From: Escherichia coli
GTDB taxonomy: Bacteria; Pseudomonadota; Gammaproteobacteria; Enterobacterales; Enterobacteriaceae
NCBI RefSeq assembly: GCF_003334335.1
Contig: NZ_QOWQ01000061.1
Strand: one strand, 5' to 3'
DNA length: 13,768 bases
This document shows, in pieces, positions 10,498 through 13,749 of the stretch. Numbering within the stretch: position 1 is the first letter of the stretch; each line of letters begins with the position of its first letter. Made by a program: the position numbers and the translations under genes. The notes below the pieces were generated by a model. The model did no database searches. It was given only the letters and a program-made list of their open reading frames with translations, and was not told where the DNA came from.

Positions 10498-13400
10498 TTG
10501 GAAGTAGAAATGTGGGATGGTGGCTTACAAGAACAGGAAGTATTGGCTATTGAGAAAATAAAAGCTGCTTTTTCAGTCAACGTATCTAAGCCTGACAAGC
10601 CTTTCCGTAGCGGTTCAATTAGTGAGCAGCTAAAAAGCTATGGTTTTATCGGCAATGAAATGTTCCCTTGGAAAGGTTATGCAGGTTTTCGATTTGTTGA
10701 GGCAAAAAAAGAGGGGGAATTCGATTTAGTTATTGTAACACACTGCAACGTGATCATTGTTGAACTGAAAGACTGGAACCATCAGCCTGTAACCGCACGC
10801 GGAGATACTTGGTTTAAAGGTGATAAGAACATGGGGCGCTCGCCAGTAAGCGTGACTCGTAGCAAAAAATTCATGCTGGACAAAAAACTCAAGCGTCTGG
10901 TAGACCGTTTTACGAACAAAGGCTATATCCCGATTGTTCATTTTTTTGTTGTGATGACCGGCAATGCAGATTTCAGCGCGCTGCCGGAGGAACAACGGCG
11001 CCATACGATCTCGTTAAAAGATTTCCTGAAGTTTGCCGATCGCGGGAGCTTCAATAACTATTTCAAACCGCACCCAGCTACCAAGGTTCTTAACAAGGAT
11101 TTCCATCTTTTCGATGATTTGTTCCTAGGGCCTCAGACGGCACCAAAAGCCTTGAGAGTTAATGGCTATGAAGCTAATGATATGATTTTCGAACATCCTA
11201 AAAAGGTGTATCGAGAATATCTGGCAAAATCTGAGATATCAACGAACAGCGAAGCGCTACTCAGAGTATGGAATTTTAGAAATATAACGGGAACGAAAGC
11301 GAATACCCCGGAAGGACGAGCTCAGATTGTTTCACGTGAGCGCGAAGTGTTACAGCACATCAATCACCAGAATCGTGACCTGTATAACCACTGTCTCAGG
11401 TCTTTGACGAGTTTTCAGAAAGACGAGGTGACGGCCGAGTATAGCGAAGTCTACGAAGTTCCGCCGGGTCATGTCCGGTTTAATGAGTTTATCGGAAAAT
11501 ATGGTAAGAACTTTTCTGATATGGACCGCTTGAATGTGGTGAAACTGCTCATTGCAAAGTTTAGTGATCTCCATGAGATGAAAATTGCGCACAGGGATGT
11601 CGCCGATCACAGTCTGTGGATTTCACCTTCAAAAGAAGTTGCTCTTTCGAACTTTATTTCGGCTTACCACCAGCCAGCCGGAACGGTTGGCGATTACCGT
11701 AAGCTTTTATCCGTAGGTGCAGTCCACGTAAAAGACATGCTTGATAAGGGCGAGCTTACGCCTTTTCAGCAAGATGTTCATACTCTGGGCCTTGTCGCCT
11801 GGCACTTATTTAGCGGTATGCGCATGTCGCCAAAGAGTCTGGAGAAAGTACAGGACAACATGCTAAACAGCCAGCACTGGTATTCATCTGTATTACGGGA
11901 TGCCGTTGCCGCAAAATTCACTTCTGCAACAGAATTCTTTGATGCCCTGAAACAAGCCGAACCTGCTGGCAAGGATATTCCAACATTTGATGATACTGAG
12001 CTTGACCCTTACCGACATGCTATCAATCACGCTCGTCAATACCCGGAAGACGATGGCTTTCAGTTTCAGGTCGAAACAGTCGACAAAGAAGTCTATATCT
12101 CGAAAGGAAGGCTCGTGAAGGCTTGGCTGAATGTTGGGGGACAGGGATACGATCCGTCAATTAATTTCCAGGTTCTGAAGTTTTTAAAGCAGGTTGAGCG
12201 GCTTTCTTCAGTTAAAACAACGTATCTACCTCAAATTCGTGAATTCGGTATCGCATCAAAATCATCAAGCCTATATATGGTCACGGATCAGGTACAGGGA
12301 GAAACCTGGGATAAAATAGCGGTCCCCGATGATGAAAAAATCGACCTCATTGGTAAGTTTGTCGCCGCCGTTGAGCACTTACATGGTCTGGGTGTTTCTC
12401 ACGGGGACATCCACCCTGGCAATGTGATATTTGAGACACAGAGCCGTTTGCTTTTTCTCATCGATATCCCCGATTTTTCACCGTCCGGTGACGAACCTAA
12501 AAATCACAGTTACAGCCCTGAATACATTGATAATTGTACTTCTTTTGAACGTGACAACTATGCAGTGATGAAGATGTCCTGCGAGTTGCTAGGCATGTCA
12601 TGGGGGCTGGAATCAGACATTTATCCGACAATCGCGAATGCTATCCGAGCAGAGCTGGAAGATCCGGTTTTTGGGTTTAAGGATTTAGGCCGCTTTAAAA
12701 AAGCGATAGATAGTAATGACCTGGTGCCAGAACAAGACCTGATAGAGATTACTGCAGGAAATGCCGATGAAATAATCTCTATTCTGCCTGATAACGGGCA
12801 TCTGTATGTCAAAGTTAAGTCAAATCCTAAAGCGCCAGCTGAAGTAAATGTGACTTTCTCTGGGATTGGTGGCAGTTTTACTGCGGTGTTCAACAAAGAT
12901 CAGAAGACGCTGGTTCATGGCTTCAGGCCACGGGCTCGCGTCACAATTCGTAAGCAAGATATTGATGAAAGCCAGTTCGAAATTGATACTGGCATCAAGA
13001 TTATTCCCGGCAGTCCGCAGGATCTGTCGGCGTTGACAGTATTGCTTAATGAAGAAGAATCTTTTGCGCGGGCAATCGAGTTGATTGCCGCAACTGAAGA
13101 TGTTCAGGTACAAGAGCCACTTACGCTTCAGCTAAAAGATACCTTTGCAAGGCTTGATAAGCAGACGCTTGAACCTTCTTTAAGAGAAGTGCTGGAAATC
13201 CCAACAGTGAAACTGTGGCGCGCCATTCTGGATACTGAAACAGAATCTTATCCAAACATTGAAATCAGCGGTGAAGTGGTCCCGGTTGCAGATGCTCATG
13301 GAGAGCTTCTTCTCCCTTACTCTGCTGATGTTGATCCACTCGGTGCTTTCAGAAGTAGTGATGAAGTCGAAGCCTTACAGGTCGATCAGGAAGGTGTTGA

Positions 13401-13749
13401 GCGATTTATTGGTGAAGTGTCACTTAAGAAGTCAGAGCTCAAAGAGATTCGTCTTGTCAAAGTTAGTTCAGCAGCCTTCAAGCTGAAGGATTCTGATATT
13501 GTCTTCTTCCGTACAAGGCCGACTCGTGCATCTTATCAGAAACGTAAACGCGCACTGGAACGTCTCCTAGATCGAGAAAGTGTGCTGCCTGACTTAATTG
13601 ACTTGTTCGATCCATCCTGCAAACAGGCGGCTCAAAATTATGGTATCACTCTCAGCGATACCGATTTTGCCAGATACGACCGTGAAGATCAGTGTCAACG
13701 ACGGATGAAAAGTGATCCACTTATATCTCCACCAACGGCCCAATATTGA
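10498..13749 (+). CDS. Large multidomain protein: N-terminal NERD (PD-(D/E)xK-like) nuclease domain, two Hanks-type kinase-like domains (first degenerate, second apparently intact), unassigned C-terminal region; candidate anti-phage defence protein
   Basis: 1083-aa ORF. Strong SD AAGGAG (10485-10490) 7 nt before the TTG start at 10498; first ATG at 10510. NERD-like core GEFDLVIVTHCNVIIVELKDW (D76, E89, K91) followed by PIVHFFVVMTGNADF. Kinase-like 1: IAHRDVADHS (H365-R366-D367) and DVHTLGLVAWHLFSG (subdomain IX-like). Kinase-like 2: SHGDIHPGNVIF (D637, N642), LFLIDIPDF (DFG-like), YSPEYID (APE-like). Motif reading only. Confidence 0.9.
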   Translation: MEVEMWDGGLQEQEVLAIEKIKAAFSVNVSKPDKPFRSGSISEQLKSYGFIGNEMFPWKGYAGFRFVEAKKEGEFDLVIVTHCNVIIVELKDWNHQPVTARGDTWFKGDKNMGRSPVSVTRSKKFMLDKKLKRLVDRFTNKGYIPIVHFFVVMTGNADFSALPEEQRRHTISLKDFLKFADRGSFNNYFKPHPATKVLNKDFHLFDDLFLGPQTAPKALRVNGYEANDMIFEHPKKVYREYLAKSEISTNSEALLRVWNFRNITGTKANTPEGRAQIVSREREVLQHINHQNRDLYNHCLRSLTSFQKDEVTAEYSEVYEVPPGHVRFNEFIGKYGKNFSDMDRLNVVKLLIAKFSDLHEMKIAHRDVADHSLWISPSKEVALSNFISAYHQPAGTVGDYRKLLSVGAVHVKDMLDKGELTPFQQDVHTLGLVAWHLFSGMRMSPKSLEKVQDNMLNSQHWYSSVLRDAVAAKFTSATEFFDALKQAEPAGKDIPTFDDTELDPYRHAINHARQYPEDDGFQFQVETVDKEVYISKGRLVKAWLNVGGQGYDPSINFQVLKFLKQVERLSSVKTTYLPQIREFGIASKSSSLYMVTDQVQGETWDKIAVPDDEKIDLIGKFVAAVEHLHGLGVSHGDIHPGNVIFETQSRLLFLIDIPDFSPSGDEPKNHSYSPEYIDNCTSFERDNYAVMKMSCELLGMSWGLESDIYPTIANAIRAELEDPVFGFKDLGRFKKAIDSNDLVPEQDLIEITAGNADEIISILPDNGHLYVKVKSNPKAPAEVNVTFSGIGGSFTAVFNKDQKTLVHGFRPRARVTIRKQDIDESQFEIDTGIKIIPGSPQDLSALTVLLNEEESFARAIELIAATEDVQVQEPLTLQLKDTFARLDKQTLEPSLREVLEIPTVKLWRAILDTETESYPNIEISGEVVPVADAHGELLLPYSADVDPLGAFRSSDEVEALQVDQEGVERFIGEVSLKKSELKEIRLVKVSSAAFKLKDSDIVFFRTRPTRASYQKRKRALERLLDRESVLPDLIDLFDPSCKQAAQNYGITLSDTDFARYDREDQCQRRMKSDPLISPPTAQY

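Follow-up and report, generated by a model that had tools for sequence, protein, structure and literature searches.

Does a long open reading frame (ORF) that pairs a nuclease-like domain with kinase domains, at the cargo position of an Escherichia coli genomic island, represent an anti-phage system that has so far gone undescribed? The question is posed by a 13,768-nucleotide (nt) stretch of contig NZ_QOWQ01000061.1, here called the window, in which a plus-strand ORF of 1083 codons runs from a TTG at 10498 to 13749. A first-pass annotation, made from the sequence of the window alone, had put this ORF forward as a single large gene with an architecture unlike that of any named defence system, and so as a candidate undescribed anti-phage system. 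We confirm the reading frame and the assignment to defence, but not the novelty. The ORF is a 5′ fragment of mkoA, a gene of the Mokosh type I defence system, that is cut at 13692 by the insertion sequence (IS) IS100 and lacks the helicase encoded by the intact gene. We are highly confident that it represents an insertion-inactivated mkoA allele, in a system that forms the cargo of an integrative E. coli island of the CP4-57-like (P4-type) kind.

Mokosh was defined by Millman et al. in 2022 (bioRxiv 10.1101/2022.05.11.491447). In type I, a helicase and a nuclease are encoded by two genes, the helicase gene also specifying a serine-threonine kinase domain. In that work, three Mokosh systems protected E. 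coli, the tested systems were expressed from their native promoters, and helicase ATP-binding mutants lost defence, although the preprint text is silent on which of the three systems bore these mutations. The supplementary table of the same preprint lists system SG199, from E. coli SEC470, as a verified ‘Mokosh type I’ with a 1652-amino-acid (aa) MkoA described as ‘Kinase-Helicase’ and an MkoB described as ‘HTH’ (helix-turn-helix).

A search with PADLOC, which the first-pass annotation had suggested as a check, matched the window ORF to the MkoA profile PDLC03921 with E = 0 and 1218 bits, aligning residues 1-1065 of the protein with positions 1-1025 of the 1607 in the profile. A defence family was found, but it is one that already has a name, and the profile is covered only over the first two-thirds of the MkoA family. 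That homologues should belong to a named defence family was one of the outcomes which the first-pass annotation had said would refute its claim. Membership is also seen by comparison with the orthologue from SEC470, the one verified in 2022: SEC470 MkoA and the window protein share 92.5% identity over the 399 residues available, and the DNA cloned upstream of SEC470 mkoA is 94% identical to window positions 10226-10620, a region that includes promoter-like hexamers and a Shine-Dalgarno sequence.

The full extent of the gene can be seen in other genomes. When complete E. coli genomes were searched by megablast, window 10400-13692 was found at 99.9-100% identity in several hundred of them, where it sits within a much longer gene annotated as an ‘AAA domain-containing protein’. 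The intact allele of E. coli USVAST219 (locus L001) has 4959 nt and encodes 1652 aa (WP_061088962.1), and residues 5-1065 of the window protein are 100% identical to residues 1-1061 of this product. At the DNA level, blastn aligns window 1558-13692 with L001 3143-15293 at 99.4% identity. In USVAST219, mkoA is followed by a 478-aa ORF (L001 17066-18502) that overlaps its stop codon. PADLOC scores this pair as MkoA (2205 bits, profile positions 5-1603 of 1607) and MkoB (1.9e-151). The locus in the window had been described as a single large gene; what we see instead is the 5′ 64% of mkoA, with 1061 of its 1652 codons before the IS100 insertion that cuts it short, and in intact loci the gene also has the partner mkoB.

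The missing part is the helicase. The C-terminal third of intact MkoA contains AAA_11 and AAA_12 domains, starting at about residue 1068, and has a Walker A motif (GPPGTGKT) at residue 1090. Its matches among solved structures are the Upf1/NAM7, DNA2, IGHMBP2 and Sen1 helicases, all of which align beyond residue 1065; no solved Mokosh structure was found in that search, in which only helicases matched and only over the region missing from the window. Millman et al. gave as a hallmark of type I a kinase domain encoded in one gene with the helicase. The window protein has this kinase domain; the Upf1-like (COG1112) superfamily 1 (SF1) RNA helicase with its Walker A motif is absent from the window ORF. 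Judged from these alignments, the ORF is a fragment of an MkoA family member and not a complete member.

How the gene was cut is recorded at the junction itself. Homology to the USVAST219 locus ends exactly at window position 13692 (blastn), and the next base, 13693, is the first base of an IS100 terminal repeat. From there to its last base the window matches the first 76 nt of an IS100 copy in another E. coli locus (L002), where the element forms a 1954-bp insertion relative to L001 (L002 12160-14113), flanked by a 5-bp duplication (CGCTC). This copy has imperfect terminal repeats (TGTCAACGACGG / TGTCACGAACGG) and is annotated with an IS100-family istA and an IS100kyp-family istB. Codon 1066 of the window ORF begins at 13693, and the IS-encoded part (13693-13749) supplies the C-terminal 18 residues (CQRRMKSDPLISPPTAQY) together with the stop codon, whereas intact MkoA goes on past residue 1061 with HGNKISLNEQQ.... 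Read in this way, the ORF runs out of a truncated mkoA into the IS, so that its end is accidental. Because the cut, after intact residue 1061, precedes the Walker A motif by 29 residues, nothing of the Upf1-like helicase is left. The window takes in 76 nt of IS100, and a complete element, a target duplication, the 3′ part of mkoA, and mkoB would all fall beyond it; the window end is probably the point where a short-read contig broke in a repeated IS, and the rest of mkoA and mkoB probably lie on the far side of the element. The features of the locus are collected in Table 1.

Table 1. Features of the mkoA fragment and its immediate surroundings, in window coordinates (aa, residues of the ORF product).
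Feature	Position	Strand	Details
AEP-primase gene remnant (‘TOTE conflict system’ archaeo-eukaryotic primase)	9987-10325	+	RefSeq pseudogene at L001 11588-11926; window coordinates by offset
Promoter-like TTGCCC-18 nt-TATAAT	10356-10385	+	10/12 consensus matches; upstream of mkoA
Shine-Dalgarno AAGGAG	10485-10490	+	7 nt 5′ of TTG 10498, 19 nt 5′ of ATG 10510; read from sequence
5′ fragment of mkoA (Mokosh type I)	10498-13692	+	codons 1-1065 from TTG, corresponding to residues 1-1061 of intact MkoA (1652 aa)
NERD (PD-(D/E)xK-like) domain	10666-10914 (aa 57-139)	+	Pfam PF08378, 9.3e-07; D76, E89, K91 (D...ExK)
First kinase-like domain	11317-11847 (aa 274-450)	+	Pfam Pkinase, 0.027 (weak)
Second kinase domain, core	12238-12480 (aa 581-661)	+	Pfam Pkinase, 9.5e-06; canonical HGDIHPGN loop; DIP at 656-658
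IS100 (IS21 family) terminus	13693-13768		starts TGTCAACGACGG; 76/76 identical to L002 12160-12235

The domains predicted at first pass, a NERD nuclease-like domain paired with kinase domains, were recovered in a Pfam search as NERD and two Pkinase regions, one of them weak. The residues singled out for mutagenesis (D76, E89, K91 and D637) are all present, D637 lying inside the HGDIHPGN loop. A motif scan shows that the first kinase-like domain reads HRDVADHS and lacks the Asn of the HRDxxxxN catalytic loop, and this domain may be a pseudokinase. The second kinase domain is also matched by several PD-T4-6 kinase profiles in PADLOC.

The start signals of the ORF hold up in part. The strong Shine-Dalgarno sequence noted earlier is there, and it precedes two possible starts: the TTG, which RefSeq chose for the truncated product, and an in-frame ATG at 10510, which RefSeq chose for the intact allele. 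The gene had also been credited with its own promoter-like signal. The hexamers do exist, and a 32-mer that contains them (window 10356-10387) recurs unchanged in the DNA that was cloned 5′ of mkoA from SEC470, but a promoter scan gave one consensus-like site against 1.5 ± 1.0 expected in shuffled sequence, which is not above chance. The exact 1083-aa product has its own RefSeq record (WP_250112115.1), named ‘NERD domain-containing protein kinase family protein’, and the representative of its 90% cluster is a 1652-aa protein.

Intact MkoA (1652 aa) begins with the NERD domain; a kinase-like domain that is degenerate comes next, followed by a canonical kinase of the Ser/Thr type, a linker and, at the C terminus, the Upf1-like SF1 helicase. 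Its gene is co-transcribed with mkoB (478 aa). In a working model of the intact system, the helicase would sense a phage nucleic-acid species, and this would license a nuclease effector, which in the SEC470-type subtype is possibly the NERD domain of MkoA. In the window allele, IS100 has inserted after codon 1061 of the intact gene; translation enters the IS end for 18 codons and then stops, giving a product that keeps the NERD and kinase modules and has lost the helicase. As mutation of the helicase ATP-binding site abolished Mokosh defence (Millman et al. 2022), the truncated allele probably confers none, if Mokosh systems behave alike in this respect.

Several points weigh against an inactivated mkoA allele. 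A complete IS100, a target-site duplication, and the 3′ part of mkoA with mkoB could not be shown for this genome from the window. This exact junction occurs in 0 of 5,426 complete E. coli genomes (megablast of window 13560-13768), and no contig encoding WP_250112115.1 is on record. Further, the argument for loss of defence draws on point mutants in related Mokosh systems and not on this truncation, and the NERD-kinase fragment may have an activity of its own.

The last of these points leads to a modified account, which we consider improbable. It holds either that WP_250112115.1 keeps a helicase-independent kinase or nuclease activity, be it toxic or a narrower form of defence, or that recurrent IS insertion in mkoA is selected because it silences a Mokosh system that is costly, as opposed to neutral decay. 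It further supposes that SEC470-type Mokosh may have its effector in MkoA, as the NERD domain, and not in MkoB, as a phospholipase D (PLD) domain. Recurrence can be judged from the distribution of the system. The mkoAB pair is found in 353 of the 5,426 complete genomes, and in a sample of 60 rows taken evenly from 354 matching records, 50 mkoA loci look intact and 10 are interrupted or truncated. The lesions in other E. coli include IS3-family insertions and a deletion that fuses mkoA to a fragment of a contact-dependent inhibition (CDI) immunity gene; separate searches found IS100 at a different mkoA codon (the L002 copy described above) and IS2. To judge from these alleles, mkoA is repeatedly and independently broken in E. 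coli.

It is more doubtful still that the 1083-aa protein is a genuine stand-alone defence, whether as a new single-gene system or as a functional, ‘domesticated’ truncation, in which kinase signalling and the NERD nuclease act without a helicase. Such a protein would explain an ORF that stays open for 1083 codons, has a good Shine-Dalgarno sequence and was annotated by RefSeq as a NERD/kinase protein. N-terminal NERD and kinase modules are also found together in PglW and MAD6, single-gene kinase defences such as PD-T4-6 match partially, and a second truncated mkoA allele that ends near the same region was seen in about 3 of the 60 evenly sampled records. However, the stop codon and the C-terminal 18 residues of this supposed gene are IS100 sequence. 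Up to that point it agrees at every position (100% identity) with residues 1-1061 of a protein of 1652 aa, and this lack of change with respect to the intact allele argues against adaptation after truncation. The IS100 junction on which such a gene would depend is in none of the 5,426 complete genomes, the other truncated mkoA alleles are annotated pseudogenes that arose from different lesions, the PglW and MAD6 scores fall far under the curated cut-offs, and the helicase ATPase is needed in Mokosh.

The least credible alternative is that the junction is an assembly artefact, in which a short-read contig broke off in a repeated IS end, or was wrongly joined to one, although the genome truly has intact mkoAB. 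In its favour, no more than 76 nt of a multi-copy element are reached before the window stops, a pattern typical of contig ends, and about 3,000 of the 5,426 genomes contain IS100-end sequence, with as many as 25 copies in a genome. Against it, the sequence switches precisely where the IS100 terminal repeat (TGTCAAC...) begins, as true transposition would give, whereas a chimera is not expected to honour the element boundary to the base, and finished genomes do show IS insertions in mkoA, including IS100 at another site.

The intact USVAST219 locus also bears on the nature of the Mokosh effector. In its MkoB, neither a PLD domain (Pfam) nor an HxKxxxxD motif was detected, and the match to the other MkoB profile is confined to the N-terminal half (residues 12-248); that other type is listed as ‘HTH-PLD’, and the SEC470-type MkoB as ‘HTH’ only. 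The MkoB homologues available are at least 92% identical. On this comparison, the lack of PLD in MkoB is a trait of the subfamily to which SEC470 Mokosh belongs, even though this is the system that was verified, and the published description of Mokosh type I as a helicase with a PLD nuclease may fail for this subfamily. Because no PLD domain is detectable in SEC470-type MkoB, the NERD domain of MkoA is a candidate effector nuclease, and we put it forward as a hypothesis that it may fill this role in SEC470-type Mokosh.

The island that carries the mkoA fragment is recognisable from its backbone, which consists of an integrase gene (1781-2983; domain match 3.5e-55), a 605-aa minus-strand ORF, an IS1 remnant, an alpA-like HTH gene, yfjI and a yfjJ/Gp2-type gene, in that order. 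According to the RefSeq annotation of 99%-identical loci, this is the order of CP4-57 in E. coli K-12, where abpB and abpA come after yfjJ. The placement given at first pass, directly after an int-alpA-yfjI-yfjJ backbone and in the slot held by AbpAB in K-12, was thus correct, and so was the suggestion that cargo is swapped at this conserved position: K-12 has abpAB, strain ETEC4090 has a primase gene and other DNA, and the window has Mokosh. In ETEC4090 (L003) the same island lies at the same ycdU site and is 99% identical to window 1-10322. Past 10322, the ETEC4090 island continues with an intact 2361-nt AEP-primase gene (L003 30010-32370) and other DNA, not Mokosh, whereas about 340 nt of the primase gene are left before the Mokosh cassette in the window and in USVAST219. 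The end of primase homology at 10322 marks, on this alignment, the left edge of the Mokosh cassette, which replaced the rest of the primase gene. PADLOC and NCBIfam gave no defence matches for the other island ORFs, and ARAGORN found no tRNA gene in the window.

Some further observations concern the island as a whole. The 99%-identical element adjoins ycdU in the window and in ETEC4090, but clpA in USVAST219 (window 1-1557 versus L001 1-3142), and therefore uses at least two chromosomal sites. The 605-aa ORF (3170-4987, minus strand), at the yfjH position of CP4-57, lies in a markedly AT-rich stretch (32% GC versus 40-45% around it) and has no match in Pfam, PADLOC or NCBIfam. It is conserved in the islands of both USVAST219 and ETEC4090, whose annotations call its product a hypothetical protein. 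Between this ORF and the alpA-like gene lies an IS1 transposase pseudogene (approximately 5184-5876), frameshifted and with an internal stop according to RefSeq annotation of identical loci. In yfjI (7020-8463), an 8-bp deletion near 8117, relative to the intact 477-aa allele of USVAST219, gives two overlapping ORFs (7020-8177 and 8059-8463), so that yfjI is a pseudogene in the window.

As a discovery, the locus carries little weight. Mokosh is a named system, present in PADLOC and DefenseFinder and experimentally validated in this E. coli lineage, and the family, its NERD and kinase make-up and its role in defence are all to be found in the literature and in these databases; NERD (PF08378) was already tabulated as a Mokosh type I domain in a 2023 review (PMC10952713). 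According to one 2025 preprint, T-even phages escape a Mokosh type I from a uropathogenic E. coli, possibly of another subtype, only with the help of DNA glucosylation and of the Alt ADP-ribosyltransferase (10.1101/2025.11.20.689424); in another, Mokosh type I could not be purified (10.1101/2025.07.10.664194). The value of the window is as a small example of IS-driven decay of a defence system in a degraded island, with a frameshifted yfjI, a truncated primase gene and an IS1 remnant. It also carries a caution for annotation. A long ORF at a contig end can be a gene fragment that runs into an IS end, and automated annotation gives such fragments misleading stand-alone names, of which the RefSeq name of WP_250112115.1 is one.

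Finally, the window ORF can be set against the known systems that it resembles in part or in full. AbpAB (yfjL/yfjK), at the equivalent position after yfjJ in K-12 CP4-57, is likewise an anti-phage pair of a nuclease and a helicase, but its proteins are unrelated to the window ORF, with no similarity detected in PADLOC, and are encoded on the opposite strand. Single-gene kinase defences of the PD-T4-6 or Stk2-like kind were considered and rejected, as their matches are confined to the kinase core and score 1e-12 or weaker, against E = 0 for MkoA. With PglW, the kinase of type 2 BREX, and MAD6, the kinase of the methylation-associated defence system (MADS), the NERD-like and kinase-like region of the window protein aligns over aa 57-461 (1.1e-27 for PglW in PADLOC, 6.6e-32 for MAD6 in NCBIfam). 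Membership of BREX or MADS was rejected all the same: in NCBIfam, PglW scores 85.8 bits against a curated equivalog cut-off of 990 and MAD6 110.8 against 460, only domains are shared, and the context differs in that no BREX or MADS genes lie near the window ORF.

Within Mokosh, the likeness is graded. The type II protein MkoC matches the intact allele over residues 1337-1633 (9.6e-36). The shorter MkoA of enterotoxigenic E. coli (ETEC) H10407 Mokosh type I (PDLC03920) resembles the intact allele both in the helicase and in the region before it (5.9e-130, intact residues 878-1634), as against a match of only 3.6e-17 to the window ORF, where an alignment falls in the kinase region (aa 562-698). 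These two are different subfamilies, and their helicase-region likeness is mostly to the part lost from the window allele. The closest relative is the verified Mokosh type I of SEC470 (SG199; PDLC03921 and PDLC03923). Compared to that system, the window allele ends at residue 1061 of 1652, without the Upf1-like helicase and with mkoB not visible in the window, but it is the same gene, with the same N-terminal order of NERD, kinase-like and kinase domains.

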